From the NCBI GenBank assembly GCA_907165135.1, contig OU015566.1:5456001-5520000 (forward strand): DNA of 64,000 bases, written 5' to 3'. Shown here one piece after another: positions 1 to 33,691 of the stretch. Under the pieces are notes generated by a model. That model was not told where the DNA came from. It ran no database searches and was given only the letters and a program-made list of their open reading frames with translations. Position numbers and translations under genes: made by a program. The stretch comes from Oikopleura dioica. Its lineage: Eukaryota > Animalia > Chordata. The first letter of the stretch is position 1, and every line of letters begins with the position of its first letter.

Positions 1-171
1 CATCGCCGCGCCGTTAACATCCGTCAAGATTACTACCATGACGATGCGATTGACAAGAATCTCGGTCATAATCAGTTTCTCTGAACTCGCCTGTGCCCGC
101 TCAGATTTTCGTTTATTTATTGATTATCTTGGAGCAAGGAAAATTTTTGTTAACGGGTAATTTCTTAAGAC

Positions 172-3100
172 ATGACTCCAACAAAGCGCCGAAGCGTTCG
201 ACGCCCTGTGAGCACCCCTGAGCCGACAAAAACTGGGCTTAAGCTCAGTCGAAAAACCATGGCTTTGACTCCTATCCCGCGAATGTAAGTGTAAAAATTA
301 TTATGCTAGTAATACCATCAAAATTAAGGCCCCAGCCGTGCTTCAAGAAAACAATGGTGGGACACAAGCGGCGATTTGTCAAGGCATGCCGACGTAACAC
401 CCAGCAAGCGATTTCAAGCGTTGCGTCAATGGCGACCCATTACGCTGCGCCATTTGTTGCTGGAAGTCGCCGAGCAGGAGGTAATTAAAAACTAGAAGAA
501 TTCAATTCAATACTGTTCCAGGCAAGCGACGACGAAGCGGTGGCTCTCCTCAACACTCTCCCCCACGCAAAAAGTCCGTTCAGAAGCATCTGAAGAAAGT
601 GGGCGTTTTGATGAAAGACGCGTTCAACGCCGCCCAAAGTAAGTTCTGTCAAAAAAACTGAATGCCTGTTAAACATGGATCTTTTAGACTTTGCAAATAG
701 TCCAAAAGCTATTTGCCTTGGAGGGCAGATCGGCGATTACGAAGGTTACGTCTCGCTCAAGCACACTCCCTGCCAGCTTTCCTTTAAAAAGCCGCCCGCA
801 TTCAAGGCGCCCAAGCTCAACTTCGATGGCACCGTGACATCTCGACGACGCGGTGGCGAGCGTGTCAAGGTTCCCGGCAGCGGAACTCTTATGAAGGCCA
901 AAAACATCATCGAGCTAGGTAAAGAAAAGTCAAAATGCACACAATTTACGCAGAATTTAGATTAAAACTCCGCTTCGAATCGCCGCAGCCGGCATTTGTT
1001 TACATCTTTGACGAGCGCTTTTTTCCTGCCAACCATTGTTTTGAACTTTGGCACATCTTTTGTTTTTTACTCCATATTGAAACCTGCTCCTCGCTGCTCG
1101 CCTTTAACGCTGTTTTACGAATAGAGACACAAAAATATTATTTTCATTTGTTTGTTTTTAGATGGCCAGAACAAAAGCCGATCTACTCAAAAAAAGACAG
1201 GAGAGTTCGGCTGATAGAGAGACTAGGCGAAAACAAGGTAGCGTATCGCTGTGTATTTCTCCTGTTAATCGTTCTTCAGCTTTTGAGGCGTACAACAACA
1301 TTGTGCGCGTACAATCCAACGGAATGATGGCGGCGAGAAAGCGAAGTGCGCCCCTCCTTTCATCAGGTAAGAGCTTACATCAAGTTTTTTTTTGTGCTTA
1401 AAAAAAGATTGATCTAGCCTCTTATAGATTCAGAGGCAGAGGGTGATCTCCTCATCGACGAGGCAGCCGCCGGAGAGGAAGTTGCTGGCACAACTGGCCA
1501 AGATGAACCTGCCACGAAACCTGCTGGTAAAGCCTTAGTCGCAGCTAGCCGTACTTTGGAAGGTCTTAAGTCTGTAGAAAAGGACGCGGACGAGAGCGCG
1601 AAAAAGAAAAAAGCCAAGGAGGACAAAATCGACGGCGGGGCAAAAGAAGTGCCAACTTCGAAAAAGAAGAAAAAGAAAATCTCGGCTGGCGAAGAACCTC
1701 CAAAGAAAAAAACCAAGTCGGCAAAAGCTCTTAAGAAGCGGGCAAACGAGACGGAAGACAGTGATGAAGATCAGACCCCGTCAGCGCGTAAAAAGACCAA
1801 ACGAGTTCGCCGAAAAATCGTGCCCAAGTCGTACATTACGCAAATCGAGTGGCAACGAGATATCCAAGATTTCACAAACGACAAAGCCGCTCATATCTCC
1901 GACAGCGTTTACACAAACCATCCAGATTCAGCCAAGACTGTCGTAGTCAAATCTGGCGCTTCCACGGTTTTGCCTCGTAGCGACTTGCCCGAACCGAGCC
2001 TCATCGTCGGAGCTGATAGTGTTTTTCCGACAACGATCCCCTTTGATCCCGCTGTGGCTGCCTTTTTCGACCCCGAGATGACAGATAGCGATACAGATGA
2101 AGCCGCAAAAGCAGAGCGCCATGCTCAATACGAAAAACATGCGGCTATTTATCCGATGAATGTTCTCAAATTGCGCCAGGTTTACGCACGATCTTACTGG
2201 ACAATGCGAGGAGTCGCCGCTTCGCTTTACGACACTCGCCTTGGAATTTACGCCAGGAATCTGGCAAAACGATCCAAGCAACTGTTTAAAGACGAAACTC
2301 CCGAATCGCGCTTTCGAGTTATCTTTGAGAGCTCCTCCAAGCTAATGTACGATTCGTTTTACACAAAGCCAATGTCTGCGTCAGCTCCAGTAAAAAAATG
2401 GAAAGAAATTGGGGCCCTTTTTCCTATTTTCAACGTCAACGGCTTTGGCCACTTTGTCGCCGTTGATTTCCGAGTCTGGGTAATGTTTACATCATTGACA
2501 AAAATTTATTTGATGTTTTAGGTCAAATATGATAGCAATTGGAAACTCTTGTCGCTGCACGACATAAATCTTGGTCATCCTGCGGTCACCTTTGCAGGGC
2601 TAAACAATGTTACATCTACAGTGTATCCTTGGCCGAAGGAGGGCGATTACGCACTCGAAAAAAGTGCACTCTTGTTGACGATGGGTCTAGTCCCAATTCC
2701 ACATCGCCCGCCGTACGCTGATGCTGCCGATAAGCTCACAGCCGAGGTAAACAAAACTCATTAAAATCACGAATAAAATCTTTCCCATAGGTCTGCGAAA
2801 TGTTGGGCGTCTTTCGCCCATTACCCCACGGAATGGCTCACGATCAGCGTGACACAATATATTTGGAGCTCGAAAACATGCTTTATCGAAGCTTGATTGT
2901 GTCTAAAGAAGAAACTCTCCGCGCCCGAAGCGAAACCGACGCGCAATTCCCCATCGAAGAGCGCTTTAAAACTCTGGTTGGGCTTCTTGAGACACATTTT
3001 CGCCCTAGCGATGGTGGCTACGCTCCAGCAAAGAGCAAGGAAACAGCGAGACCCACTGAAGAGGCGTTTAGAACGCTATTTGAGGCTCTTCCGCCAGTTA

Positions 3101-3481
3101 TGAAACTCAAGGGGCTAGCACCTTCACGGGAGCTCTTTCGTCGCTTTCTACAAAGTTTGGCTAGCGTGCGATTTACCGAAAATCCAAGGCTTATGCGCAT
3201 CGTAAGTTTAATCTGATGTTGCTTTTTTTGATCTAAAAATAAATTAGTTTGGAGCGCCGACTATTCCAGCTGATATCGTGTCCTGGCAGGGGTGGGCGGC
3301 GCTTCCCGTTGAAGCCCTGTTACCTGCACCCGGGGTGAACGGTGGCAATCTCTTGCGCGAAGAGCTCGAAAAAATGCTTGCCAAGAAGCGACGGATCGAC
3401 TATGGAGCGGCTGAAGACAACCAAATCCCTCGTTATAAAGATTCTGCTCCATACCCGCGCCCTCCAATTACAAAGCATTAG
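172..3481 (+). CDS. Multi-exon Polinton accessory protein with Lys/Glu-rich central region, function unknown
   Basis: ORFs 1556-2521, 2549-2764, 2800-3216 and 3278-3481 join in frame via GT-AG introns 2480-2521, 2747-2790 and 3202-3247. The 5' exons (172-1427) are not fully resolved. Confidence 0.65.
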
Positions 3482-3563
3482 CTTATTTGATGTCACTCTG
3501 TCTGCCAAGTTAAATTTAGCGCTTAAAAACTAAAATTTATTTAAAAAATCGCTCGTTTAGAAA

Positions 3564-6348
3564 ATGCGAATTGTCAGTATTTTCTTTGTTAGCCCGTTGG
3601 TGGCCGCGCTACCTCATACATATGAAGAGGCCGAGCGCTACTGCAATATCGGAAGACATTATTCGACGGAATTCTGTCGCGAATTTCGCGGCGAGGAGGT
3701 CGTAAAGCGAGAGCCGACGACGAGCACAAGTACTACAAGTACGACGACTACGGCGTCGACTACAAGCACGACGTCGACTACAAGCGCGACGTCAACTACG
3801 ACGTCTACTACAAGTACGACCTCAACTACGACGTCGACTACAAGCACGACGTCAACTACTACGACCCGTCAAGAGCCAACTCAGGTGATGGGCGCGTCAA
3901 CGCTACCCGGCAATGATACGGAGGAAATTGTTACTACGGCCGAAATGCCTACGGCGGAAACAACAGTCGCTGCTTCGGACGGTCGACAAACAATTCCAAC
4001 ATTGACGATTCAATTGCCGGAAAGCGAAACAATAATTGCGAGTCCGAATGTAACGGTTCAAAGGTAATTTTTGTGCAATATGTATAAACAGCCGCCCGCA
4101 ATAAAATTCATTATAAACAAACAGCCGGTTTGATATCCTACCTCGAGCGCGGGGCCTACTTTTTTTTGGGGAACAGCGCATTTGTTTTGAACTTTGGCAT
4201 CACCAAAGATCGCCATCATGCGAGGCCCTGCTTTGGTATAAAAAGGGAGCGACTCAAAAACTAATTATCAAAATCAAAATCGATTCTTTTTCAAACAAAA
4301 CAAGAACAAGATCAACTTGAAACAATGAGCTGCCTTCCAGTCTTCAAGAAACTCGGCAAAATCCTCAAGAAAAAAGTCGGCGAGTACTCGCCCAAGAAGA
4401 ACGAGCCAGACAGAGAGGAACTCCTTTACTGCATTCGAAGACAGCCCATCGTCAAGAGCGATGGGTATGCCACGCTCCGCCGGTGGCCCGTGCAGGACAT
4501 GCATTCCTCGTTTCCGTTAGCCGAGGGGCGAAACTGGTCGTACACCCTAACCGCCTAAACCTACAGCTCCGCGCTCACGTACTCACTTTCTTCCCTCTCC
4601 GGTTCCTTATCACTTCTTATGACTCACACATCTCAACCTACGTAATCTATTCTAAAAAATCGTTAAAAAAATCAATAAAAATCTAGAAAATCGATAAAAA
4701 ATTTTTCTTTGTCTAGAAAATTCTAGGGGGCTGGGGATCTTCTATACCTGGAAACACCTGCACCTTGGGATCCCCCCGCGTAGATCAATGAAGCAATTTT
4801 GAGGTGTATGCAGGTATCGCCAAGGTGCAGGAATTTCCTGATAGGGAGGGATCTCAAAGCATAGAAAGTTTCTGACTAACGAATTTTTTCAGGCTGAACC
4901 AAACGACCGGTTACAACCTTTCAACCGGTTCTTTCGATTCGAGCAACTACAGTGTCGGCTTCTGGATTGTATTGACGCTGCTGATCGTGTTAGCGGTGTC
5001 CGTTTGGTGTTGCTGCAGTAAGGATATCAAGCGTTATGCGTGCAATGCCTGGGAGAGTGGCTGTGATTGGATCTACTCCGTGTGTCCCTGCTGCCCGGAC
5101 ATTGATGACGAGCAAGGCGACGGGTACCTTTTGGAACCGCGTGACTTGAGTCTACGATCTAGCTCAAACAGAGGAAGACCGACTGTAGTTGAGAATGCAA
5201 ATTACGTCAGAGGTAAATTCTGTCGATTGTTCACCAATTAATCATTACTAGGAAACGCGAAAAGTTCAAAAAACGCACCGCCTAAAAATTCGCGAATCGA
5301 GGAAGAATTTGAACGCGGCGGAAGCTCCGGCCCGCCTCGAGTTCCACCGCCGCCCGCTCCAACACGCTCTCGCGCGGCGAGAAAAAGCGCCAGCCGCCGC
5401 ACGTCTAAGCCCGCGCCCAAACGCATTCCAAAGCAACTTGTTCTTCCTCGACCCAAAACCTATGAGCCGAAATTCGAGTTTTCCCAATCGGACGATGAAG
5501 ACGACTGTTGCGAGACTTCGCCGCTCAACAAGCCGCCGAGCTGTACGGCACCCCCGCGCCCTAAACCTCCTCAATTAACGGTAGCTGCCTTTATTTTTGT
5601 TTCTTAAATTAATTTCGTTTAATAGAAAATCGAAACGGAGGAAGAAACCACACAAATCACAAAAGAGGATACGCCCCAGAATATTAAAAAAGAACCTAAT
5701 GAGGGTTCGTGGGTTTCGAACCTTTTCGGCAAAGCGTAAGTCTTTCCGCCACTTTGTCATTTTTAAAAATGTGCACTAGACTCAACTTAATTCCGGCTCT
5801 CCCCGCTCCAGTCCATCAAGCGGACGCAAAAGGTAATTTAATTTTCATAATTGCGCTGCTTAAAAATAAATTTAGTCGAGATAAAAAATGAAAAAGACTG
5901 CAAAGAAGAACTTGCTTGGTCGCCCCCAACCGCCGAAACCATCTTGGCCCAACCAAGCGTCAAAGTTGAAAATGAACAAATGACTCCTGTTCAAACTTTC
6001 TCCGCCCCGTCTCTCTCCTTGGCGGAAGTCGACCCTGACGAGAAAAATGCGCCTATCGTCGCACTTGCAGACACAACCGCTTTCAATGGTTTTGATGAAA
6101 CCGTTTTTCCCGTCGACACCACCGCCACCGCCGAGGGCGTTGACGACGGCGACAATGTCTCATTCTGCAGCGAAATTACGCCACAACAAACTCCAGAGCA
6201 ACCACATCGCGCACTTCCAGACATTGTGTCTGATCACGAGTCGCCAGTTATTGCGGCTCCAAAGTGTCCCTCGGCGCCCAAGAAAGAAAAAGTTATCTTC
6301 TCACGATACGGCCGCCGCGTGCAAGCACCAAAAAGATTCGAGTCTTGA
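3564..6348 (+). CDS. Type I membrane mucin-like glycoprotein with long Pro/basic-rich cytoplasmic tail
   Basis: Signal peptide MRIVSIFFVSPLVAA, Thr/Ser tract and sequons NDT, NVT, NQT, NLS, NYS. Intron 4064-4892 joins in frame to TM VGFWIVLTLLIVLAVSVW-CCC. Further exons run to the stop at 6348 (later joins less certain). Confidence 0.75.
3718..3865 (+). repeat. Coding ~18-bp degenerate tandem repeat (Thr/Ser tract)
   Basis: ACGACGTCGACTACAAGC-like units encoding TTSTTS. Confidence 0.85.
4237..4243 (+). promoter_or_regulatory. TATA box upstream of nested ORF
   Basis: TATAAAA ~85 bp before ATG 4325, preceded by the element motif TTTTTGAACTTTGGCA (4183-4199). Confidence 0.5.
4325..4558 (+). 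CDS. Small basic protein (77 aa) nested in the glycoprotein intron
   Basis: Intact ORF MSCLPVFKKLGKILKKKV..., with its own TATA, lying inside intron 4064-4892. Confidence 0.5.
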   Translation: MSCLPVFKKLGKILKKKVGEYSPKKNEPDREELLYCIRRQPIVKSDGYATLRRWPVQDMHSSFPLAEGRNWSYTLTA

Positions 6349-6481
6349 AAACTTACCACTTCCACTCTCTCATCAATCTATGTTCACTCCAATTTTAGCT
6401 CCATTCTCACACTCTCGCTCTCATTTTTGAATTTTAATTGTTTTTATATTTTTGTTTTGGATATTTTGTTTAGAACTTTGC

Positions 6482-8253
6482 ATGAGCCAGGCCGAGCTCG
6501 ATGGTGAGTGTGAGATTGTCTCCGAGAATGCGCCGACCGCAACCGCTAGTGGCGGGGCCTCCGCAGCTAAACGGGCAAGCAAATCATCAAGAGCAAGAAC
6601 GACAAGGTCGTCGAGCCGCCGAACAAGAGCCGACGCCCAGAACTCTTCGTCGAATAATGATGCGAGTAGACAGCGCGGTTCGCTTCCGAGAAGCAACAAA
6701 CGAAGAGTTCAACAGGCTAAGAACGGAAATAGCGGCGATCAAGCAATGTCTGATCTTGCAAAATCAGGCTATGAGCTTTCCTCCGCAAAACAATCTACAA
6801 CAAGAACAACAAGTCGAGCAGCCGATGCGCTGGATAACGAAACAATGGGTGAGTTTTTTGTCAAAAATCTATAATAATCGACTGTTTAGCAAAATGCGAA
6901 GTTATTAGCTCGCGCAGTTCTTCAATATGCGGACGAATTAGCCGGAACAGTCTTTCTAGCGCTTCTTATAACCGTTGCGCCAGCGTTGGCGATTCGATTG
7001 CTAATGCAGAATTAAAGGACGAAAATCAAACGGCAACAAAATCGCTGTCGATTCGCGCCCTGCGTAAACGTCAGAAAACCCCCATATTTGAACAATCTTG
7101 GCCCGAGTACTTTCAAGCCATCTGGGACAATGCTTACAATCGAACGAGTTTATTCGAAAATTGTCCCGTGAATATCGTCGGCGGTAATCGTTACTATCCT
7201 GAAAGTGGGATCAATTGGGCGCTTGCGATCATGAGAAACACACCCGAGGATTCAATCAAAAAAATGCTTTTGGGCTCGTCGTTGATCGATGGAAGTGTGC
7301 TTTATGGCCGACAGTATAACGAAACCGATTCTTTACTGCCGCCATCGCCGCAGCCGAGCCGCACTGCACCGAGCCGTACGGCGTCCGAATCAGATTCGTT
7401 TCGATTTTTTGATGCCAATCTTTGCGAGAAATATCCGCCGTTTCAACAACAAAGCGTCGCTCTCGCGACTCTTGAATTTTCCGTCATATTGGATGTAAAA
7501 TGTGTCCCGTCGTATCTTGTTGATGGAAGCCAAGCAACGGACCTTAACAAAGTACGCATTGTATCATTTGCGCTGCGCGATGTTGCCGAAAAAAAATCAA
7601 TGTTTGACGATACAGAACGGCATCACGAGAGCGAGTTTAATATCGGCGCTGATATTTCAGAAGAATGCATTACAGCAATCCGTCAACTCTGCACAAAATC
7701 GTATTACGACACGAAAATATCGCCAAGTTTTTCGACATCCTGCTGCGATATTCAAACGACCGCGTTTTGGCGAACACAAGTTTTGGACTACTATCTCACA
7801 ATTTGTGCGATAACAGACGCGCTAACCGAAACAGCGCATATGACAACGGTGGAGGACGAAAATTTTATTCCGCTCATGTACAAAAAGCTACAGCTGATTG
7901 AAAACGCTGCAACGGCTACAGTCGACGATCAGCAACAACAACGAGGCGAGGAAACAAATTTACCAAAAGTCCACAAAATGCTAGAAGATCTCGAGCGTGC
8001 ATTACAGCGGATTACACTTTTGCGTGATTCGTGCAAAAATGCCCACATCAACTTTTTAATAGGAAAGCGCTCCACTAAAATTCTGTCAACAAAAAAACAA
8101 ATTTGTAGAACGCGCTCTAAAAGTCTGCCGGAAATTTATCACCGAATATGTTCGTCAGCAAAGAGGACACATGAATCTCGTCTATTCACATACAAAATCG
8201 GAGATGGCAATTCTTTTGACTCGATTAAAAGGCGATCAAGAGACGTCGGATGA
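6482..8253 (+). CDS. Two-exon accessory protein (~575 aa), Ser/Arg-rich N-terminus, function unknown
   Basis: MSQAELDG... joins via GT-AG intron 6849-6889 in frame with ORF 7168-8253. Confidence 0.7.
6501..7015 (+). CDS. Overprinted tail-anchored coiled-coil protein (~157 aa)
   Basis: The alternative frame is open on both sides of the same intron 6849-6889 and ends in hydrophobic GTVFLALLITVAPALAIRLLMQN*. Confidence 0.55.
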
Positions 8254-8358
8254 GCGGCTGCGTCGTGAGATTTTGCTTAAAAGACTGGAAAAACTGCGCC
8301 AAGATGCAATCAACTCACATAGGCTGGGGTTATACCGATCGATTATCTATCACGAATA

Positions 8359-9438
8359 ATGGATAAGTTTAACCCCAAAAGACAAACCATGCGCCGCATA
8401 ATTTGTGTCCTTCATCATCGTTATGTTGCCTTTCAAATCGCCCGGAGAGAGAGTATGGACGAACGATGTAACGAGCTGCTCAAGCACAAGTCGATTCTAA
8501 ACGAAGAGTATCTGTCAGTAAAACGCCATCAATATAAATTGCTGCTACAGAAAAGTGAATACGACAGTGCCGATTTCAAACTTTATCGCGCGCGCCCCCT
8601 CGAATCAACCAGCGGAAGTGTTATTGAACATGCGCTCTGGAAACGTCAAGACGGTGATTATCACCCTGAAACACCAATATGTAGCAGCGGTGAAGATACA
8701 GACGACGGAATTCAAGACATTGAGGACGTCAGCTTGGACATTGAGCCGTCGATAAGCGACACAAGGTGCAAATATACAAATAATTAATATTTGATTCTTG
8801 TTTAGCAGAATATCCGCGGCGGCGCGATCAAGTGAAGAAAAAAAGCAATTGCATGTGCCGCCTCTACAAACTGCGCTGTCCCTTCTCACGCCAGTAACAA
8901 CAGCAGTAAGCAGTACTGCATGCACAACTGCAGAACAGAGTACGCTGAACCAAATTGTAAAAACTGCGGTCGCCAATTCTAATCTTCGACTCTTTACTGG
9001 GTCAAACAACACGCCCAGTCATCGAGTGGACAAGCTTCCAAAAATCGAACAACCGACAGACCTATCTTGTAAGCTCTTTTCACTCCTTCCCATAATTTAC
9101 TTTCAGTTTCAAATAAAATGCCGCCGCCGCAACATGTTCCGCCGCCGCCAAGTGTGCGGCCTGCCGTAGGGCCCGCCGTAGGGCCTGCCGTAGGGCCCGC
9201 CGTAGGGCCTGCCGTAGGTCCTGCCGTAGGGCAAGCCGTAGGGCAAGCCGTAGGGCAAGCTTTGTCTGCAGTACCGTCTAGGCCTACCGTAAGGCCTGTT
9301 GTCCCTCCTTTTCGCCCATCGTCAAACGAGAACATGTACAACATCAACGAGTGTGTTTATCAACCTTCTACTTCCACCGCCGCCGCCGCCGCCGCTTTAG
9401 AAAACTCTTTTGACCAAATGTTCAACAATTATCAGTAA
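8359..9438 (+). CDS. Multi-exon accessory protein with acidic and Pro-rich (PAVG)n regions
   Basis: ORFs 8359-8787, 8798-9169 and 9118-9438 are separated by short intron-like segments (~8766-8807, ~9069-9106). Exact joins were not checked. Confidence 0.55.
9160..9258 (+). repeat. 12-bp coding tandem repeat GCCGTAGGGCCT/GCAA
   Basis: About 8 units encoding PAVG/QAVG. Confidence 0.9.
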
Positions 9439-9535: not shown

Positions 9536-10517
9536 TTATTGATTCAACCAAGAGGGAGGATAAGTGAGTACAATTATTTGGAAACCAAGGATTCGGTGAA
9601 GTCGAACGTTGCTTTCTTTGTAAACATTTCGACGGAGAAACGTATTTTGCAGCAGTTTATCGGCAAAAGCAGTCGGCTCCAACTCGGCAAGCATTTGATC
9701 CAGGTCCTTTTCGTTTCGCAGTATTTCTGTATCGTTTAGGCTTCCCCATGTATTCGGGTACACTATTTCGTAGCGCGTGTCAACATATGACTCGCCACTC
9801 TCGTCGGTAAATGTGTTGCTACTTTTTGTAATGTACCACGCGTCGACCGAGATTCGCAACAGGCCGTTTAGATTTTCCGCAAGCTGCTTGACAATGTTTT
9901 GAACATTGGCATCGTTCAACAGCGAAATTGTATACTTGTTGCAGAGCTGTGCATAGCGGCTATAATAATCGCCACCCAACTCGAGTTGATTTTCACGCCA
10001 AGATTGCCCTGAATTTGTTTCCAAATATAAAAACCTACAAAACAAACGTATATAGTAAATTGGAGGAAATCGTAATGAGTCGGCCGCAGTGAGCATTTTC
10101 ATTTCTTCAGGTTGAAAGTAGCCCTTGGGTGGGTTTTTATGCGGGATCAGCTTGTCCAAGAATTCGCGATTGGCCTTGCTCCCCGTTCCGAGAAAATCGC
10201 CTTCGTAATTCCAATCTGGCACCGCTTTTGACGCAGGAAAACCAATTCATTTGATGGCGACTCAAATTAAATCGCGGATCGTCAATCTCATCCAAGTCGA
10301 CGAAGCGCTCAGGCGGATTGAATTTGACGCGAAGTCTTGAATCCCGACGCTTTCGGAAAATATAATCGACAATGTTTTCGCCTTCTTCAATATCCGCATA
10401 TGATGATGATGATGATGATCGTCTATTGTTAAAGGAGTCGTCTGTGTCAGCAACAACAGAGCCATTTGCTTTTTCCGACGGTTTCAAATAATTGAAAATT
10501 GTATTCTTTGAGCCCAT
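9536..10517 (-). CDS. Putative stand-alone terminal-protein-like gene (one frameshift near 10225)
   Basis: ORFs 10137-10517 and 9536-10222 join by one base at GTCAAAAGCG. The C-terminal pattern (ILRNEKDLDQMLAEL...SNVRLHRILGFQIIV) resembles the N-terminal region of Polinton pPolB. Confidence 0.45.
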
Positions 10518-10556
10518 TCTGAAAAAAGAACAAACCTTACTTACAAAAACATTTAA

Positions 10557-13500
10557 TTAGACAAATGTGTTGTCAGAGTAGATCAAAGGTGATGTGGAAA
10601 TTTTGTCGTCGGCTACAAGACGTTTTTTAAGCACATTGTTGAATACAGCACGATTCATTAAAAATGTTCGCATTCTGTCTCGCTTGCGATCCATTTGCAT
10701 GACGGGTACATCCTTTCTGATTTGACGATTGTAATCGGCGCCAAACACGGCGGCAAGATACTCGTAATGGCTGTGACAGTGTATTTATCAAATCAGTTTT
10801 TGCACTTACCCAAGTTGAACTTTTTCTTGCAACCTTTGGCAGATTTTTTGACGACTTTTGTTGGCACAATATCCTCATCCTCCATCTGCGCCAAAATGTC
10901 CAAAACGCGATACTCATTTTTAGGATCACAAATTTGCCCGTCCATATCGCAGGGCTCTTTCTCCACCATGGCATAACATTTTGGACTCGGAGCCAAAAAC
11001 CAGCCCGATTTTATTGAGACTTCTTTTAAGCAGACCGGGCTCCTTTTGTGAAGCATCGTCACCATCGACGGCAAACCATGCCGGGCGAATCTCCTTTTCC
11101 CACTTGTCTTTGAGTTTTGGATTGACGCACTTGTGCACGCTGTCTTTTGTCAACGCCAGTATAAAGGAATCCGTATCAGCATAACAAAACTTGTACGAGC
11201 CGGGCATCAAATAATCGCGCAAAATCTGTTCAAATTGCATAAACAACAATTTTGAATTCTTTTGAAGGAGGATCGACACTCTGAGACTGGCGGGGTCCGG
11301 GGGTCCGGGGCGGAGCCCCCGAGGGCTATGGTTGCCGGCCGTACCGGCCGGCGGGGGTCTGGGGTTGCCGTGCCGAAGGCACGGCCAACCCCCAGTCGCA
11401 CAAGGTTCCGGACGACCGGGCCAGGCCTGGATGGAGCCGTGCCGTGCCGTACGGCCGGCACGGCCACCAGCCAGGTTCAGGCCAGGGAGGACGGCAGTTT
11501 TGGTTGTTGGTGGTGCGGGTGGTTGGTTGGTGGTGGTTGGGTTTGGTGGCGGGGTTTGGTGGTTGGTGGTGGTTATTGAGGGTTCAAGCTTACAGAATAT
11601 TATTCAAAATAGGCGTAGAGCAAAGCATTTTGGCGTTTGGGTTGACAAAATTTGAAATTCTTTTCTAAAATACAAGCGCGCGTTATGGTGATTGTATTTG
11701 TCGAAAATGACATTTGTTTTGACCTTTGGCCGCAATGGTTGATTTTGGTTGCCTTTGTTTTGATCTTTGGCAGCATTGGTGGTTCTGGGTTGCCTTTGTT
11801 TTGCTCTTTGGCAGCATTGGTGGTTCTAGGGTGCCTTTGTTTTGATCTTTGGCAATTGTGATTTTGCACCAACAGAATTCAGGAATCATTCTGCCGTGGT
11901 TTCCGATAATGAGGGTTCATTTCTAATCCTAGTAGAATGGCGTCAGGGTATTCCTGCTGTTCATCCTGTATCATTTTACTCAAATTGCCAGAAATTAAAA
12001 AAAATTTATAAAGATCTTTTTTAAAGGGTTGTTATGGTTTTTGAAAAAACATTTGTGAGAAGGGGATTCGAACATAGAGGGTAAGCATTACGACCAGCAA
12101 GCGTCAATCTAAGAGTACTTTTGCTCGCTATCGCCGCGTTACTTCAATAGTACCGCCGCAATAGGGAACAGGGATTGGGCTGATGAGAGGGAGGAGAGGG
12201 GAAAGGAGAATGGGCTAGTACAGCTCAAATTTAGCCGCCTTACGCTCTGCTTTAGCTCTATATCCACTCGGCCATCGTTCACGGTCCTCCTTTCCTGATA
12301 GACAAAGATTTGAATCGGCAAGGCCAAATCTTCGGTAACATTCTTTTTTCGACGAACAATCTCATGCAGCGGATCTAATGCAACATCTTCGACTCTTAGC
12401 TGTTTTGTTGATTTTAACATTGGCGAACGTATTGCATCGTACATTTTATCGGCGCCGACAATTGAGCAAGAAAGAAAGCGGTAGACGGCCAAAGCAAAGC
12501 GGCCAACCATTGCATTGAGAATTAATTTTATGACAAGTTGAAGACCCGCGTTTTTCTTGCTCAAAGCGGTTACGCGATCCTTGACCATGTTTGCAACAAA
12601 TTTTTTGAATGGAGCTCCTTTGTAGTACTCGACAAAGTAGTGAACTTTAATCTTGACGCCTTTGTTATCAAGAAACTCTAGCATTTCGCTGGTTGCCATG
12701 TAATTCTTTGCATTGTAGCAAAACACATTTTCTTCGCTTGGATAAAGTCGCTCCACGGTTTTTTGCGGAAGAACGCGCTTCATATAACCATTGAGTGTGT
12801 CAGTCGTTAGCTCCGTTTTTGCAAAGATGGGCGGAATAAACGGATTTTCATCTATAACTTTTTGCGTCGAAGAAAGATCAACAAGCGCAAGTCCAAAGAA
12901 TTTTTTCGCGCGCAAAGCTGCCAAAAAATCTTCTTCCGTCACACCAGGTTTGCCTGGAATCATGCCGCTAAAATTTGGCTTCGCTCCTTTATACAAAAAT
13001 GGATAAGTTGGCGAGTGTGGCGCTTCATTTGCAAATTCAGCATTTGTCCAAATTTTCAGCCATTGACACGCGTAAACAATGACAATCTCATGAGGAAAAT
13101 TAAGAGGACCTTCTTGCTGTAAAAGATCGTCTTTGTCCTCGCCAAAAATTGGATCCAATTCAAAGGGCAAGTAACCTGCCATTATGGCCTCTTCGCGAAG
13201 AGTGTCAACAATGGCGTGCATTCGGGCGTCATCCTCTGCTTGCAATTGCTCTGGAGTGATTTCCTTGTAGATTGGCTTCCCACCAACTGATGCGACCTTC
13301 TTTTTGCATCCTCGCCAAGGTTTACGCTTACAATGCGGGCACGTATGATAAGAGCAGCCTCTAAATTCGAAAATAACTTTTTTTCGTATTGGGTTCGCAT
13401 CATCGTCGCCGTAAATATGATAGAGACGATTTGTCCCGCTAATAAACTCATCCAAAACAGTGTATCCGTCAACATGATGCCTGCCAATCTTCTTTTCCTC

Positions 13501-16500
13501 ACCATTGTACGAGTGCTGTATTTTACCGTTGTACGTTTTCCAATTCAAATATTCAAGCCATCGAATAGATTCCAAAGATGTGTTTTGCTTCTGCGCGTAA
13601 AGACCGTCATTGAAAAAACGAACTTCGCCATCTTTATAATCAGAGCTCGCTGTTATGGGCGCTTGAAATCTCGAGTTATTAACGTGACCAAAAACACTAT
13701 TTAAAGTGTACAGTATGCCAGGGCCAAGGGGGAGATTTCTAGCTACAGCCCATGGATAAAGTGAATTAAAGTCGAGCCCTTCCAAATAGACGTACCGTTC
13801 GCCATTTGGCGCATGCGTTGCGGCCTTCGGAATGCGCGGATCGTCGTGCCTTTCATTCAAATATATTGCGCGATGAAGAACTTGGCAAATTCCACCTTGA
13901 AGCTTTGCTCGACAATCTTTGTAGTAAAACGCCGCCTTTGGTGGCGGAGAGTAGATTGGCGGGAGCTCGGAGTCATATTGCATCAGCGCAATTTTCTGGG
14001 CCATCTTCGCTATTGACAAATCCGCATGAATTCCAAGACCAAATTTTGTCTTATAGTTTTCGGCGTAAGCGTCAATACTTCCCGTCAATAATTTTACATC
14101 GTTGAAATTGTTGTTGATAAGGAATATCATCATTGTCATTTTTTCACCGTCGCCGGGGTTCTTACTCTCCAAATCGGCAACCATTCGCTCCCACAATTCT
14201 TTATTTTCGTTGTATTTTTTTGGTTTGAATCGAAAAAAATCTCGCACCGCGGGATCGTTTGGATCGCATTGATGGCATCGAACCTCTGGGTCGTAGATGA
14301 ATTTCTTTCCTAAAAATCTAACATGCTCATCGACAATTGATCGTGGAGTTCTGTTATTTTTATCGCACCACTCTTTTAGCACCGGATCGTCAAGAAGATT
14401 TCTCAAGCACAACCAGTCAGACAGCTGGCATATAACCGCTTCGTCACGTTGCCAACGATCTTCACTTGTGTCTTCGCACTTTTGCCGAATCATAAGATTG
14501 ATCTTTGCGGCGTATTTTGAGCCCTTGTTGAGTGCGCCACTTCCCATTGTCGAATAAAAGCACGTATACGCAGGAAAGCGTTTTGCAGCTTCCAGCTGAT
14601 CAACTCGGGTATACCATTCATATGGAAATGAACCCTTGGTGTATTCGTCGGGATTGAGCCCCATTGATCGCGCCAAATCGGCCAAACTTCCTGGTGCAGA
14701 GTAGTTTTTGAAATCGCGAAAGCTCAACCCAGCCGCATCCAAGAGCATATAACCACCGTCGCGTTTGATTGTTGAAATTTGCTGACTTTGCTTGCCCGAA
14801 AATTCGTAGAGCACAGATACAAGCATTGGATATAAAACACATAAATCGTATGTTTCCCCATACCACGAGTAAATTTTTAATTTGTAAAAATCACGCAAAT
14901 AATTTAGCTTTTTGCGCATCGGAACGAGTTCATCAAACGAATACTTGCTTCGTTGCTCTTTATCGCCCAATTCTTTTGAATAAAAATCGACTCCATCCTT
15001 GATCATTTGCGGGATTTCGGAAATCATCTTGTCGCGAAGTTGCTTCAAGTAATTGACAAATTCAGCCAACATGACAAGAACCGAGCTATAATCCATGTTT
15101 TTTCTTTTAAAAGCGCGTCTTTCTCCATCACTTGTCATGCAGGCAAGAGTCGCCAAGTTGTGAAATTTTCGTTCGTCGTTAAATTCACATGTTTCCGTTT
15201 TTAACATTCCCTCGCTCATAAGACATTCGATATCATAAGTGCAATAATAATCCTGCGTATAAGAAACAGACGGTAAGTAGTTTTCATCGACTAATTCTTT
15301 GACAAAGTCAATAACACGGGGTCCAAGAACTGATTGACGAATTCTGCAGGATGTCTCGGCTGTGCAATTTTTACGTGTGCACGCATATAAGACGCTTTTT
15401 GATGAGAGTAAAGACAGTTTTTAGTCGGGCAAACAGGCATATCGATAACTTCACCACGATGCAAAATTCGGCAGAGAGTGTTGTCGCTAAAAACATTTGG
15501 CACAAGTGCCGCCAAATTTCGAATCGGACGATAAACAGCATCATCTTCCCTCTCATCATACGAGTCATATCCATCACAATCGTCGGTCCCGTCAGAGTTG
15601 CAGTCATCTTCTGCAGCCATCGAGTCAATAAACGGGTTTGCGCCGAGGCCCCCGTCATATTCCTCAAACTCGCCTTCATCAAGAACAACACTTTCATTGT
15701 CGTTGTCGTCGGTTTCATAAGTTGCGCCTTCGACAAGCCCCGCGGCATCCACATCGCCTTCATCAATAACATTTGCGGCAAAACCGCGATCCGCGTCAAG
15801 GCGTCGCTCGCGTTGATATTCGCCATCCGCTGCAAGAACGGGATTGCGCCACGGGTTCCGTCGTAATTCGTTGTAGGAAACTCCCGCAAATTTTTTAAAT
15901 TCAATCTCGAATTCGTCCGGAGTATAACTTCCAACAAGCAAATTGAGCGGATTTTTTCCCAAGATTGGTTTTGTGGCGTAGAAACACACTTTGTTGTTAA
16001 CATTGTCGTTGACAATTTTGCCAATAAAGAGACGAATTGGCAATTGGTAACGTGTTCTTATGCGTTGAAAAACACCGTCGGCAATACTAAACATTTCGCG
16101 ATCATCGATGCACATCTCACGTTTGACTTCGACAATTTTTTCGTCTTGTTCGGTTTTGTTCAATTTTGGCCAACGATATTTTACAATAGCTCGCCACAAA
16201 TTTATCCAGTCGCGGTCCCGCTCCTCAGCGACTTTTCGTGTTGGAATAACGTAAAAAGGACCAAGTGTATGAAAATAGGGGCGAGCACTTTGCAGAATAA
16301 CAAGCGGTCGATCAACATGTTCGTTGTTGGTGTGGCCAGACTCGTACTTTTCCAAAACGTTGCGAATGCTCAACACTTCAGCCGTTCTACTCGGTCTGTA
16401 TGATATACCAAGTGGGCTGTATTTTCCTCCATACAATAGATACAAATCAATATTTAAGAACTCTTCAATTTTTGGCAAATCCGCTCTTGTTGGTTTAGGC

Positions 16501-16841
16501 CCAAATCTAACCTCCAGCATTGACGTGTTGCATTTTAAAAGATCGTCCTTAAGTTCTTGGTTGATTGTGGTTGGCACCTTTGGAGCAATTTTTTGAAGAA
16601 AATTCCACCAATTTTTCCCAAATAAAAGCGCGTGATAAATGTTTGTCGTTTCTAAATCAATGTTTCGCATTTCTGTGCCAGTTCGAAATTTCGTTCCTTC
16701 CGCATAAGAAGCAAGAAAACGCCGTTTTTTGTTTTTATCAGCATTGGATAAGCCTACAAAGATTAACTTGTAATCACATCATTTTCTCTTTAATTTACCT
16801 TCTTTTGTTTTTTTATCTGGATAGAATCTTGAAAGTTTCAT
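10557..16841 (-). CDS. polB: Protein-primed family B DNA polymerase (pPolB), ~1700 aa, spliced
   Basis: ExoI TYDIEC (just upstream of ORF 12139-15219), GLDFNSLYP, KLILNAMVGRF, YADTDS, KSAKG, and an internal VDG...EFRGCSYH..C nuclease-like insert. Introns 16798-16754, 12294-11259 and ~10810-10772. Frameshifts at ~15370 and ~11025. Confidence 0.93.
11259..12294 (-). other. 1036-nt GA-AG intron/insertion in the polymerase palm
   Basis: Removal restores ...FVYQ|NSKLLFMQF...YADTDS. Starts GAAAGGAGGACCG, ends CGATCCTCCTTCAAAAG. Confidence 0.8.
11715..11855. repeat. 41-bp tandem repeat x4 inside the polB intron
   Basis: TGTTTTG(A/C)(T/C)CTTTGGC starts at 11715, 11756, 11797 and 11838. Confidence 0.9.
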
Positions 16842-16897: not shown

Positions 16898-18720
16898 TCA
16901 TCCTTTTCGTCTTTTGGAGTTGCCCTTGTTGACGCCGCGTGTGGTGCTATCGACTTTTGTATCCTTTGTGCACTTTTCTTCCAAAGCCTTTAATTCCGCA
17001 GACTTCCGTTTTTTACCAGAGGCGTTTTTCTCCAGGACGGTCGCTTCTAAAAAAAAAATTAACATGCGCAATTCTGTAAAGCTCAATTACCATTTCGATT
17101 TGCGTCCAGAAACAGTTCGTTTCTCGGAATTCGGAAAATGAGCGTGTCCCACGTAGCTTCAAGCGGTGTCTCAAATTCTATCCTTATTGTGACGTTTGCC
17201 GTATTTCCTTCGCGATCGTCAAAGAATAATGGAACCATCCAGAAATAATCCCGGAAAACGAAAAAATCCTGGCCAAGAGCGTTAGCTTTGTTATCCCATC
17301 TTCCATTATGCTTCATAAAATTTGTATAATGATCTGTCGCCGTAGTCCATGGTGATCGAAATTGCGGCACATTGTTGACAAAGACGGTCAGCTGCTTTAT
17401 TTTGAAGTCGGGATCGGCCATTGTCGTTTTGGTGAGGCACTGTCGAAAGGATTTTATCTCATAGCGAGAGTGAGGCATTCCAGTCAGCACAATCATTTTT
17501 GGAAGGGGACCAGTATTAACCTCAATGTCGTAAGTTGACAAATTTCCGGACAGCGATTTTCGCGTCATTCGGGGATAAAAGAATGGTAGCACTCCCTCCC
17601 CTTTGACACCAGTCGAAACGGGCTTTTCCGATTTTCCGGGTTCGCAGAATACCGACTCCATAATGTAATTTTTGGGGTCAACAATATCTTCAGGATCGAG
17701 TGTATGCTTCATCCAAATGTACTTCTTTTTGTCATCCTCTGGACAAGGTGAGATGATTGGCGTTGTGACTTTAAGAGTGTGAGCCTTCCACGGAGCTTCT
17801 GCATCACCAGAGTTTATTTTTGTTTTTTGATAAAGTAGCGATTTATCAGTGTATTTTGCCTCTCCAGCTTTATAAACTTGTTCCAAATCGGTGTATTCTC
17901 CAGAGTCGTATTTTGCAGCCGTGCAATCGCAATCCTCAGCAGTTTTATGCTCCATCGGTTCACCGACAGTCTTCATTCCAGTTGGAAAGGGCCATTCCAT
18001 ATTTGAGACAGCGTCTTCGCTTACTCGGCACAGTTGAAACTCGCTCAATTCCATCAACACGCGCGAAATGTAATTGAGTGTAACTTCAAGCGACGGTCGT
18101 GAGCCTGGGGGTAAGACGCGAGGTTGACGCGCAAGCCCATGAGTTATTGGCGCTCGGAAATCGTAGTCGTAAAAGCATCGTTCGTATTTTTGAGGTTGAT
18201 CACCAGTTTTAAAAACGACAGCTTCAGAATGAGTTTCCCATCGTTTTTGTCCATATTGCTTCCGGTTTTCAGCCAATGTTTTATTATTCCGAGCGAGCTT
18301 TATATATTCAAGCTCGTATGAATCCGCTTCCAAGCTATCGAATCGACCATATGGAAAAAGCTCGCAATCCTGCGCCAATGGAGAATAATTCAATTTTGTG
18401 ATGGCTTGACTAAAGAAAGCGTGCTCGTGATCGTCAAATGATGAGAATATACGGTTGTCCAGGATTTTGATATCCAGTTTTCTTACAAGTTTTCCATGAA
18501 CATCGTTGTCGGGTACATAGTTTTCGGGCATTGACAATCGAAACCGAAACATGCACTCCGAAAGTTTGAGCGAAAACTTGTCATCCGGCACTTCAAAAAG
18601 GACGCGGTTTCCACAGTCAAATTGGCCAGCTCTTGAAAGAACTTTATAGCCTTTGTACGGATCGTCATCGCAGCGAACATCACGATTGTAGAACAAAAGA
18701 TTTCCAAAGTTTTCTGTCAT
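16898..18720 (-). CDS. Double jelly-roll major capsid protein with a short basic C-terminal exon
   Basis: Patterns YVPDNDVHGKLVRKLDI, TKLNYS, HGLARQPRVLPPG, GPLPKMIV, FVNNVPQF..P, VTIRIEF match Polinton MCPs. Intron 17090-17047 adds EATVLEKNASGKKRK... Confidence 0.8.
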
Positions 18721-19165: not shown

Positions 19166-21011
19166 AGAAACGCCGGTTGAGCGCCGCGCCGCGTGCATCA
19201 TGGAGCGTAAACGTCGGAACAAATGTGCCCCAATGAATTTTAACAATTTTATAAAGTTCGGCGGACCAATTTGCCGTTGCTCCCTTTTTAAAAGGATTTT
19301 TTCCAAGCGCATTCACTGGAATTCGGACCAAGTCCCCGATGTAAAATTTTGTTCTTGTTTTACGGGCCCCAATATTTCGACGTTTTTGCTCCAAAATCCG
19401 TCTTTTGGTGGCATATCAATAGCATTGTGTACAGTTGCGTTATACATCGCATTAATATCTTGAAGGGCATGAATCCAGCGCCGCAAACCATTGTGCTCAT
19501 CAAAATAACGCTGCAGTCTCCCCTCGAGCGTTTGACTAAATTTTATTAAAATCTTCAACAGCGACGTAAACTTACATAAAGCGCTCTGCGATTGATGATT
19601 TATGACGCCCTCGAAGTTGATGAGGAGTTATTTGCCATTTCTCCAATAGCGGCAAAACGGCTCCTTTAAATTCATTGCCGTCATCGACCATAAGAAACGT
19701 GTGACCGGGTAAATCCAAGCGCTTTATGATGTCTTCAAGCGCTGCAGCCGTTTCTTCCGCCGTCTTGCGCTTTAGAGGGCGTACAAAGCTCTGACGTGAT
19801 AAACCATCCACAACAACAAGAATATATCTGTAGCCATTATTGATCTCAACATCGTTGGCGAACCATTCACAAGTATCAGCAAATAGACAAGTATAAAGTC
19901 CAGTCGCAATAATGGGATTACGGCGAAAACGTGATTTGTAGGGTTTGTGCATTGAGATTGTTTTGTTACGACGTTTAAATTTTGCAAGATCCATTCCACT
20001 ATAAGCAGAAGCGTTTTTCAAATTGTAAAAAAGATTTGCAGATGGCGATGTTGTGCCCGGTTCATTGCCAAAAGTTTTCCACATCGCTGATCGGGGACCC
20101 CTCATGAGGCGTGGATCCCTGCTCGCTTTGCTCCGATTCGTCCGATTGTTGAGCAGTTGTTGATCCTCTGGGCGGTTCGAATTCAGTAACCACTCGTTTT
20201 GATTTCTTTGGTCCCTTTGCGTAGGAAACATGCGGCTGTTCGCTTCCGGATTCGTTGTCACTGATGACAATGTACTTGCTTTCGTCGCTGTCGTCGCCTC
20301 TCGGGCCTGGGGTTGCCGCACGTTTTCGCTCAAATCTGACTCTTCGAAATCCATCATCTCGACGTCTTCGTTGTTGTCGTTGTTGGTTTGCATACTGCCG
20401 AATGATTCGTAGTTCATGTTCGAGTCGGCGTCGCTTTGCATATTCGCGTCTTGCAAGCCACTCAAACCTTGACGCTTCTCCGACCACTGTTGGGTGCCAT
20501 TCTCGTCGATTAGCGGATCTGTCGAATTCCACCATCCGGTGTCGCTCTCGGGGAGCTCTTGAATATCTGGGAGTCTCTGATTCAATTTCTTCAACGGGGG
20601 TTCGCTCTCGCCTGTCATCATGGTTAGAAACGAAATTCCCCCGGTTCGCGTGATCAGAGCGGGCGCTACTACCGGCGAAGCGCTTGTTGGTGACGTTGGA
20701 TCTCCGATTCCAATCTTGTTCAGATTGTTGGATAGATTCATTTGCCATGAAGCCGCGATTTCCAGTGGGTTCTGACCCGTTGCCACTTGCTGCGCGTTTG
20801 TTTTGATCTTTGCCAACGCGCTGTCCATCGGTTTGGGTGTCTCGACCGACCCCGTTCTTGCGATACTCGGGGTCGTCTGGAGTGTCGTCCCAGTCGGAAA
20901 AGTCGTCGTAGTCTTCGCCAAATTCTCCGAGAGCCTTCGATTTCCCAACGGGATAAACTCGGTCGCATATTCGTCCAAGTAAGCCGGCCGTTTTACTCGC
21001 CTCTTCGTCAT
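19107..21011 (-). CDS. Retroviral-type (rve) DDE integrase of Polinton class
   Basis: ADT...YRYILVVVDGLSR, VDDGNEF, AERF|IQTL (40-nt intron 19575-19536), YNATVH, GDLVRI..FKKG..NWS..FYENEL. One frameshift near 19380. Confidence 0.92.
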
Positions 21012-21141
21012 AGTCTGGATAGGGAGAGCCTTTTGTTTTTGGAGCGGTAAATCGTATTTCACCGGTATCTGGATTTGTTTCGTACTCGGAACAAAAATGG
21101 TCTATACAGTCAAGCGGGATGCACGCGTACGGATTTGGCAT
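20062..21141 (-). CDS. 359-aa acidic/Arg-rich protein overlapping the integrase 5' region in another frame
   Basis: ATG-initiated uninterrupted ORF with an Arg-rich helix (RREYAKRRRLEHELR...QRRRRDD). Confidence 0.6.
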   Translation of the reverse strand: MPNPYACIPLDCIDHFCSEYETNPDTGEIRFTAPKTKGSPYPDYDEEASKTAGLLGRICDRVYPVGKSKALGEFGEDYDDFSDWDDTPDDPEYRKNGVGRDTQTDGQRVGKDQNKRAASGNGSEPTGNRGFMANESIQQSEQDWNRRSNVTNKRFAGSSARSDHANRGNFVSNHDDRRERTPVEEIESETPRYSRAPRERHRMVEFDRSANRREWHPTVVGEASRFEWLARREYAKRRRLEHELRIIRQYANQQRQQRRRRDDGFRRVRFERKRAATPGPRGDDSDESKYIVISDNESGSEQPHVSYAKGPKKSKRVVTEFEPPRGSTTAQQSDESEQSEQGSTPHEGSPISDVENFWQ

Positions 21142-21353: not shown

Positions 21354-21743
21354 ATGAATCCAGTTGAAGCTGAAGCTAGAGAAAACTGCTGGCCCGTACA
21401 AGCGGAGATTTCTGGTTATCGAACTGATCTTTGGCCTACCCGATACTTTGTCCGTGCGACCCCTGTTGAGGGTGGTTTGCGAATCGACGAGAAACTACCT
21501 GCCTGGTACAATCGTCTTGAAGAAGGTGTCGAATTCACCGCCTTTGTGAGCGACCAAACTTTCAACTTGAACAACCCCGAGGAGAAAGCGTACTTTGAGT
21601 CGCTTGAGAAGAAGTTTAAGCGAAAAACCGGCGTCATCTGGCTCACCGACTGCCTGGATCGTAAGAAGGCGGGCTACGAGCCTGAGGGAAAAACCAAGGG
21701 ACTCTTTGTTGCCCGGGCTTTTACAGCATGCCCAACTATTTAG
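21354..21743 (+). CDS. Hypothetical protein (129 aa) upstream of the ATPase
   Basis: Intact ORF MNPVEAEAR..., whose end overlaps the ATPase start. Confidence 0.55.
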   Translation: MNPVEAEARENCWPVQAEISGYRTDLWPTRYFVRATPVEGGLRIDEKLPAWYNRLEEGVEFTAFVSDQTFNLNNPEEKAYFESLEKKFKRKTGVIWLTDCLDRKKAGYEPEGKTKGLFVARAFTACPTI

Positions 21744-22537
21744 CTCGTTACTGTGAAGACTTGCGATTTGAGCACCCCTGTTGCTTATTGGTGAGTGGCC
21801 ACTCGGGCGCTGGAAAATCAAATTTTATAAAAAATACGATAGAGCATAATGGAATCAGAGGTACTATCAAAACAATTTTTTATTTTATGCCCCGATTAGA
21901 ACCCTTAGATATTACTCCCGCTCCACATCAGCGTCTTTTTGTCATGGCGGGTCTTCCAACGCAAAGTTGGATAGACGATACTTTTAAAGACAGTACGCGT
22001 GATACAATGCTTGTTATCGACGATATGTGGAGCGCGTGTATTGAAAGTCCTGTAATTGAACAATTAGTAATTTATGGCCGTAGGCATCAGGGGATCTCGC
22101 TTGCATTTACATGTCACAATTTCTTCGAGCGATCTAAGAGGTCAATAACAATACGGTAAGTCTCTAAATTTGAATAACATTTTTGATTTATTTTTAGTCT
22201 TTGCATGACCGCAGTCATCTCGTTTATCAGTGAAGCCGATTTGAGTGCAAACCGCGTCATCTTCAGCAAAATGGGATTACTCGAGCCATTCAAGGCTGCT
22301 ATCGACCTCTTCAAGAAGAAACGCGTTTCAAAGCATCAATACGTTATTGCCCGAAAGGATGTTACAAAACCAACACAGGCGAAATTCTACACTAACGTCT
22401 ACGGTGAAATACCCGGATTGAACGGTGTTCCTTGGGTTCTGGCTTTTGATACTGCAAAACACGTTTATTCTTCCAACATCAAATATTTTTGTTTTATTGC
22501 AGGCAAAAGAGCTAAAATTTTATCGCAGGTAGATTGA
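21728..22537 (+). CDS. A32/FtsK-like genome packaging ATPase
   Basis: LRFEHP, Walker A GHSGAGKS, Walker B LVIDD, GRRH motif. The 42-nt intron 22156-22197 joins TIR|LCMTAV in frame. Confidence 0.9.
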
Positions 22538-29350: not shown

Positions 29351-29664
29351 CTTCCTCTCTTTACAAGTCCCTATCTCCTTAAATTTTTACTGGGGCCGAA
29401 ATATTTTGATACCGAAATCGAAAAGCCGCTTGCGGCTTCGAGCTAAAAATAATGGAATAGCCGCGCGAGGCGCGGCTTTCATTTGAGATCACCAAAACGG
29501 ACCAAATTGTAATAGTAATGGTCTGTTCTGATGATCACAAATGAAAGCCGCGCCTCCCGCGGCTATTCCATTATTTTAGCTCGAAGCCGCAAGCGGCTTC
29601 TCGACTTTGGTGTCAAAATATTTTGGTCCTCTATTTTAGGAGATAGGGGCTAGCAAAAGAGAAG
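29351..29664. mobile_element. Foldback/MITE-like palindrome (~310 bp)
   Basis: Arms such as AAGCCGCTTGCGGCTTCGAGCTAAAAATAATGGAATAGCCGCG match their near-perfect reverse complement across a ~25-bp loop. Confidence 0.75.
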
Positions 29665-33188: not shown

Positions 33189-33421
33189 TGTAAGCGTCTA
33201 AGTACTGCTGTATGCTCTCTATACTAGACGGTTCTCTTGCAGCTAGTCGTAGCCTCTACTGTATCTTCAATAAAACACGAGGAAAGGTAGTTTCCGAAAA
33301 AGCGTGTATTCTGCACTTTTACTGTGCGCGGACTGAAGCAGTGAACGTAAAAGTGGCAGAGAAGAGCGCGGCGCGAGATCCTGATCAGATCTCTAACCGA
33401 CTTAAGCACTTAGACCTCACA
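33189..33421 (-). repeat. 3' LTR
   Basis: TGTAAGCG...CCTCACA, identical to 39583-39815. A short purine tract GGGGAG lies adjacent on the minus strand. Confidence 0.95.
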
Positions 33422-33691
33422 GCTCCCCAGATTCTAGAGACGTTTCGAGAATCTTCAGTTGAAGAGTTGAAGTCGGGAAGATGAGTCATCGTAGTAGAGC
33501 AGAAGGGAAAGGAGAAAGGAAAGGCGGCCAATCAGCACAGCGCGGCGTCGGAATTGCACCAGCGTAGAGACGAAAAGTCGAGAAAAGTCGGACGAAGATC
33601 GAACCATTTCCGGACAGCGACAGCCAATCAGAGCGCGAGAAGAAGTAGACTCGCGCGAGACGAGTTTTCTTTTAAGAAAACTTCTCCTTTT

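Follow-up and report, generated by a model that had tools for sequence, protein, structure and literature searches.

We analyzed a 64,000-nucleotide (nt) stretch of Oikopleura dioica DNA (assembly GCA_907165135.1, contig OU015566.1, positions 5,456,001 to 5,520,000 of the forward strand; hereafter the window) and identified a locus in which two overlapping reading frames, A from ATG 6482 and B from ATG 6501, share one predicted intron. We consider it likely that the locus is a dual-coding gene belonging to a Polinton/Maverick-type element of Oikopleura, and that a single message makes a long product, A, and a short, predicted tail-anchored product, B. The parts of this reading differ in firmness. 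We regard it as very probable that both frames are functional, and hold the gene's membership in the Polinton with the same confidence; leaky scanning as the switch between A and B is favored with less assurance, and whether B acts as a membrane adaptor is evenly balanced. Conservation carries the case for dual coding; the length of B alone does not.

The gene lies on the plus strand. Frame A begins in the context TGC-ATG-A, with T at −3, and its first exon (6482–6848; 122 codons) encodes a low-complexity arm that, over the overlap, is 45% Ser, Arg, Thr, and Gly and 12% large hydrophobic residues. ATG 6501 follows 19 nt later and opens frame B, which is +1 relative to A (exon 1, 6501–6848). 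An earlier, sequence-only reading had described two ATGs in different frames, both open across an intron at 6849–6889 in phase 1 (A) and phase 0 (B), and a T at −3 of the first; re-reading the sequence bore this out, with the correction that ATG 6501 has T at −3 too, while an alternative in-frame start, ATG 6528, has A. The predicted intron is 41 nt long (GTGAGT...TTTAG). Splicing yields a B of 157 amino acids (aa) whose stop ends at 7015, and the two elements claimed for it were likewise found: a predicted coiled-coil-type heptad helix at residues 45–84 (6633–6752; EEFNRL begins at 6702) and, within exon 2 (6890–7015), a C-terminal hydrophobic segment at residues 137–155 (6950–7006). The latter is the top 19-residue Kyte-Doolittle (KD) window of B, at 2.38; the maximum in exon 1 is only 0.62, so B contains no signal-like stretch. 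B therefore has the sequence hallmarks of a tail-anchored protein, a single hydrophobic C-terminal helix and no N-terminal signal.

Spliced A continues into a 390-codon exon (6890–8062), in which relatives and a fold model delineate a conserved, mostly helical core from approximately 7099. This exon has no Met before residue 237 and the conserved core begins at residue 193, so A needs an upstream start. A non-canonical GA-AG intron of 46 nt is predicted at 8063–8108, after which the next exon aligns to relatives (E 4e-7, with the query partly in the profile's own family); further A coding segments are predicted from open reading frames (ORFs) and alignment to relatives at 8109–8787, with a tentative junction near 8320–8370 and a tentative 3′ end. 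The GA-AG intron is located where the ORFs of several close relatives stop or diverge.

The locus is not an assembly error, since a short-read contig (X1, possibly from the source sample) shows no differences from window positions 1–9187. B is 100% identical to a gene model of O. dioica OKI2018_I69 (P0001; chr1.g1459, CAG5104695.1), a 148-aa protein that starts at 6528 and has the same intron junction that we predict; P0001 probably comes from the same genome as the window and is not independent evidence. The OKI2018_I69 annotation, as described in PMC8008620, was made by AUGUSTUS with RNA hints, with a median intron of 49 nt and 11% of introns non-canonical.

The arrangement recurs in distant relatives. 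Identity to the folded core of A ranges from 22% to 37% among its relatives. Searching 1.84 billion representative sequences with A exon 2 returned 10 proteins at E ≤0.001 (26%–37% identical), and all those that carry names are from O. dioica; a single assembly contains several strongly divergent A paralogues. Word-based homologue searches returned nothing for A and P0001 alone for B. Of nine loci from a motif scan, three are true A homologues (L004, L006, and L007); the other six were dropped as chance matches, with no tblastn match and profile E values of 0.0013 or worse. L006 begins inside the A core and cannot show an overlap, leaving two related loci with readable upstream DNA, and the overlap is repeated in both. 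The A core of L004 is 31% identical to that of the window, at approximately 2.9 changes per site by tree. Its first ATG lies in the same TTGCATGAG context as in the window, and 31 nt downstream of it an ATG that has A at −3 opens the +1 frame. A predicted 44-nt GT-AG intron in L004 falls directly after a WI motif common with the window and has the same phases (1 in A, 0 in B); the resulting 116-aa B combines a heptad helix with a hydrophobic tail (KD 2.17), and a second predicted intron of 43 nt then joins A to its core. In L007, the A and +1 frames run side by side without a stop for 222 codons or more, as far as the contig end, and the second of them terminates in a predicted transmembrane helix (KD 2.95) ahead of a differently placed intron; this copy has a premature stop farther down in A. 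A further sequence, the unspliced ORF P0005, carries a B-like helix and a hydrophobic segment (KD 2.46) ahead of its core. A terminal hydrophobic helix is thus present in all four B proteins seen (window, L004, L007, and P0005), which are the four of 13 rows of the A-core tree in which B was examined, and these four fall on both sides of the midpoint root, with L007 opposite the window. This recurrence of two ATGs, a shared intron, and a helix with a tail anchor upholds the earlier view that both frames are meaningful. Long low-complexity arms of a similar kind are present in P0011, P0012, and P0013, which are annotated relatives; inferring their +1 frames from protein alone is powerless, as the window, used as a positive control, gave z 0.

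Three observations concern these relatives. Read in the B frame, the predicted intron encodes similar peptides at window 6849–6889, L004 964–921, and P0005 residues 75–88, possibly reflecting a retained-intron isoform or a conserved splicing signal. The second predicted intron of L004 (826–784), found also in P0003 and P0005, is stop-free in the B frame, and its retention would fuse the B anchor to the A core. On the minus strand of L006 (792–1025), an ORF of 77 aa, in which five arginines follow a hydrophobic helix, lies in another frame over the low-complexity C-terminal tail of the A homologue.

Comparison of the loci bears on which frame is constrained. The B helices of L004 and P0005 are 68% identical (z 28 for the B pair), their A cores 47%. 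The heptad helices share one register, with hydrophobic residues at 67% of a/d positions in the window and 92% in both L004 and P0005. The A arms, at 40%–45% S/R/T/G across loci, show no pairwise similarity (10 pairs, all z <2). Since conservation is seen in the B helix but not in the low-complexity A arm, constraint probably acts on frame B, the A arm being a passenger that needs only to stay open. This reverses the earlier proposal of B as an overprinted newcomer. The sequence-only reading had also pointed to stop codons and synonymous-site constraint in other copies as informative. One independent copy, X3, gains no stop in either frame, and only one of its 23 substitutions falls in the overlap, where it is silent in B and a conservative V>I change in A. 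Runs X4, X6, X7, X8, X10, and X13 gave only short partial matches below 95% identity without an intron joint, and these neither place the lineage in those runs nor bear on expression. The common origin of the B proteins would rest on position, intron phases, and architecture.

We compared the overlap with chance expectation. With protein A held fixed, B was open in 0.024–0.14 of null sequences, and under a lenient test any ATG-started +1 ORF of at least 100 aa arose in 0.35 of permutations; the openness of B is by itself unremarkable because the A arm is poor in residues that create +1 stops. An open B that also ends in a hydrophobic helix, given A, occurred at a frequency of 0.0075 in the permutation test, and null ranges were 0–0.010 for the window, 0.0002–0.0011 for L004, and ≤0.0002 for L007, the codon-usage nulls for L004 and L007 being based on the window's codon table. 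With B held fixed, A was open in ≤0.0008 (window) and ≤0.0005 (L007). None of 12 long alternative-frame segments, drawn from 19 other ORFs of the window, finishes in a terminal hydrophobic helix. Codon adaptation did not separate the frames (0.745 versus 0.734, with a reference set that included two mis-framed ORFs). Taken by itself, the window is suggestive of dual coding without being decisive.

The searches assigned neither A nor B to a known family. A matched no Pfam family, and its fold found no match at E ≤0.001 in viral or PDB structure libraries; PDB sequences and the Atlas were likewise negative. The fold models reached pLDDT 52 for window A and, for P0011, pLDDT ≥70 over 299 residues. 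B, queried as P0001, matched no Pfam family at E ≤0.1 and gave no usable Atlas match, and the viral contigs scanned contained no relative of A. Two motif-based readings of B were dropped: a BH3-like motif ahead of the anchor, whose pattern is not kept in P0005, and a SNARE, whose helix and anchor would here lie about 50 residues apart.

Between 12 and 22.5 kb, the window encodes a protein-primed polymerase, an integrase, and an A32-like ATPase. The type B DNA polymerase ORF (12139–15420, minus) matches PF03175 at E 1.6e-11 (44.2 bits, cut-off 25.8), the retroviral-type integrase ORF (19572–21011, minus, continuing past 19572) matches PF00665 at E 1.4e-5 as a partial ORF below the curated cut-off, and the A32-like packaging ATPase ORF (21686–22159, plus) matches PF04665 at E 1.5e-4 (21.8 bits, cut-off 22.8). 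Type B polymerase, retroviral-type integrase, and A32/FtsK packaging ATPase, all present here, are given as Polinton hallmarks in PMC8502044. Between polymerase and integrase lies a 545-aa ORF (17083–18720, minus) with no Pfam or PDB sequence match and no relative among the viral contigs scanned. This ORF is a candidate capsid-like (double jelly-roll) protein. In X1 and X3, the A/B gene is contiguous with the polymerase side at even depth, and from this contiguity we infer, with good confidence, that it belongs to the Polinton. No terminal inverted repeat pair enclosing the gene was found within the window, and the left end may be beyond its limits. None of the plus-strand ORFs tested at 1–9.5 kb has a curated Pfam match; beyond 44 kb, 8 of 10 tested ORFs match Pfam.

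The Polinton region contains further overlaps. On the minus strand, a 359-aa ORF (20062–21141, from ATG 21141) overlies the N-terminal arm of the integrase, whose start, ATG 21011, lies 130 nt later in the +1 frame, for an overlap of approximately 315 codons. This ORF matches no Pfam family; it was open given the integrase in 0 of 20,000 permutations, and the integrase was open given the ORF at 0.007. A 228-codon +1 segment (15371–16057, minus) overlaps an ORF at 15291–16778 upstream of the polymerase domain. More divergent X1 and X10 contigs carry, in the same order, brief matches to the polymerase, the 545-aa ORF, and the integrase (12.7–19.9 kb), which points to other Polinton copies. Twelve listed small length differences from X1 at 10028–11327 make ORF limits there unreliable, and the polymerase region includes a GC-rich stretch at about 11266–11580 and 41-nt repeats at 11713–11854.

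Several results weigh against our interpretation. Met 89 and Met 122 are possible alternative starts for A, and T at −3 occurs in 3 of 9 candidate local starts, too few to call TGC-ATG weak in this host. All introns of the gene are predicted from sequence and were not seen in RNA. In L004, A is open given B at 0.05–0.07, which is not rare. The scarcity of substitutions in the overlap of X3 is not significant (1 in 474 nt versus 8 in 1046 nt; Fisher p 0.29). The window B is weakly similar to other B proteins (pairwise z 2.3 and 1.4); its helix is 18% identical to theirs (shuffle p 0.0014, for a block selected from their alignment), and a profile of L004 and P0005 missed it among 2251 segments at E ≤20. 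The L007 B resembles no other B (z ≤0.7) and may be convergent with them. Finally, three homologous contigs of 1.3–2.6 kb lack a Polinton core gene, and none is long enough to show linkage to such genes.

Four other explanations accommodate parts of these data. Were only A a gene, B would be a by-product of an arm rich in S/R/T/G and poor in Leu, Ile, Val, and Met, which rarely gives +1 stops. Such a by-product would fit the frequency with which B is open by chance, the 35% of permutations with a long ATG-started +1 ORF, the 12 other long alternative frames in the window, and the lack of a Pfam match for B; it sits poorly with a terminal hydrophobic helix in every B protein seen, with the strict heptad register and high identity between L004 and P0005, and with an A arm that is itself unconserved, and we hold it to be highly improbable. 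B might instead be an ordinary small upstream gene of an operon, with the A core translated from its own start (Met 89, Met 122, or a second spliced-leader site) and the overlap short or absent. That A should be open from 6482 by chance, given B, at ≤0.0008, and in L007 over 222 codons, counts against this arrangement, as do the recurrence in L004 of the upstream A-frame ATG with its context and the similar long low-complexity arms of P0011, P0012, and P0013. We judge it improbable, even though the public annotation names B here and not A, the A arm is unconserved, Met 122 lies in the strong context ACA-ATG-G, and operons are common in O. dioica (PMC5240408).

Splicing could also be the switch between two real frames. 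Intron retention would then give an anchorless 135-aa B and cut A short, and retention of a second intron of the L004 type would fuse the B anchor to the A core, like middle T-type isoforms. The B-frame intron peptides of L004 and P0005 score 37 against each other, where the best of 37 intron-like window stretches scores 16, and the window peptide scores above all 37 stretches against both, though by only 1 point; L004, P0003, and P0005 are stop-free from anchor into core. However, AT-rich introns encode F/L/K/I/Y/N anyway, 17 of the 37 background stretches contain no stop, no intron lies at the end of B in the window, and two ATGs in one exon cannot be chosen by splicing alone, leaving this explanation quite unlikely. 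Last, the dual-coding gene may belong to the host or to another mobile element and merely lie beside the Polinton. The failure to find element ends in the window, the three short homologous contigs, and the absence of an A relative from the scanned viral contigs are compatible with this, but in both X1 and X3 a continuous stretch of even depth runs from the gene to the polymerase side, the Pfam-poor ORFs at 1–9.5 kb contrast with those beyond 44 kb, one assembly holds several very divergent A paralogues, and L007 bears a premature stop, as in mobile copies. We consider a host or other-element origin unlikely.

Under the preferred reading, a dual-coding Polinton gene, expression could proceed as follows. 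A spliced leader would be added at a candidate acceptor, the AG ending at 6473, 9 nt ahead of ATG 6482. This site lies in a T-rich spacer (6349–6481, plus; 47% T) that follows an upstream ORF and contains AG only at 6398 and 6473; there is no GT[AG]A donor in 6250–6470. Spliced-leader trans-splicing is reported on 39% of O. dioica genes, with operons common (PMC5240408), and both are likewise described as common in bioRxiv 10.64898/2025.12.04.692336. The weak first ATG would let some ribosomes pass to 6501 or 6528, fixing the A:B ratio; the two B starts are probably used equally often. The shared TTGCATGAG first-ATG context in the window and L004, followed in both by a B-frame ATG with A at −3, makes leaky scanning plausible. 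A single splice would serve both frames and attach the anchor to B, which, at 148–157 aa, is predicted to be inserted post-translationally by its tail with the coiled coil in the cytosol. B may self-associate through its helix and, during the element's active phase, serve as a membrane adaptor that acts on the host cell, and the A arm would be mainly a spacer that carries the A start across the B coding region. A bolder extension, which we think doubtful, is that a larvacean Polinton lineage kept this gene over roughly three changes per site, and that the N-terminal arm of a large protein with a new fold was overprinted on an older membrane protein with a coiled coil. Splicing of the intron would then give anchored B and full A, and retention soluble B and no A; with the integrase overlap, overlapping frames would be the element's general way of coupling proteins.

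The window has other features. Relative to it, X3 has a one-base length change in an A run at 8838 and lacks 24 bases of a tandem repeat at 9158. A plus-strand cluster includes two candidate surface proteins, a Thr/Ser-repeat ORF with a hydrophobic start (3561–4067) and a small ORF with one hydrophobic segment and a weak PF07850 match (4876–5241). A long terminal repeat (LTR) retrotransposon at 33189–39816 has two identical 234-nt repeats and matches to protease, reverse transcriptase, RNase H, and integrase. Near-perfect long inverted repeats at 29393–29629 and 52693–53822, the second with 11-nt tandem arrays, resemble miniature transposons, and a tandem duplication of about 1.25 kb (77%–95% identity) occupies 40315–42646.

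Polyoma-, adeno-, and related small DNA viruses are known to encode overprinted membrane proteins. In the open-access literature, supplements aside, we found neither overprinting in Polintons nor this Oikopleura gene, and the word "overprint" is absent from the main text of PMC8502044. Public gene models apparently include a single frame per locus, B at this one and A elsewhere, which indicates a blind spot of annotation. O. dioica is cultured in laboratories, and the question is therefore directly testable.

Among known systems, polyomavirus ALTO is defined in PMC4836724 as an ATG-started +1 ORF of more than 250 bp with a C-terminal hydrophobic segment. B, at 474 nt, follows the same design as ALTO and middle T: an ORF that starts with ATG in the +1 frame of a larger protein and has a transmembrane segment at its end. 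ALTO also overlaps the helicase-coding exon of large T. B differs from ALTO and middle T in having a heptad helix, and no sequence similarity to them was found; A is not a large T, matching neither a helicase nor any other Pfam family, PDB entry, or viral fold, and in the present locus the two frames open within a single exon and share an intron. The adenovirus E1B-19K and E1B-55K frames are read by leaky scanning. They too are two unrelated proteins of one mRNA in different frames, as described in PMC10747525, but B has no Bcl-2 or E1B family match, and here it is the long protein that uses the first ATG. In a small DNA virus of an animal, the adabscovirus pair Abscondo/Arnao, as described in PMC11071296, has a leucine-rich ORF overprinted at +1 on a large, functionally uncharacterized protein; the virus group is a different one, and the passages of that source on the pair do not mention a shared intron. 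Its neighbors, a type B polymerase, a retroviral-type integrase, and a packaging ATPase, ally the A/B gene with Polintons, Mavericks, and adintoviruses (PMC8502044). It departs from the adintovirus Oncoid proteins in that LXCXE and paired CXXC motifs are absent from A exons 1–2 and P0001, and from Polintons in that the accessory genes here have predicted host-sized introns. The A/B gene would work like ALTO, E1B, and the Abscondo/Arnao pair but belongs with none of them; if our reading is correct, the ALTO/E1B design arose independently in a Polinton of a chordate, where a spliceosomal intron is common to both frames.
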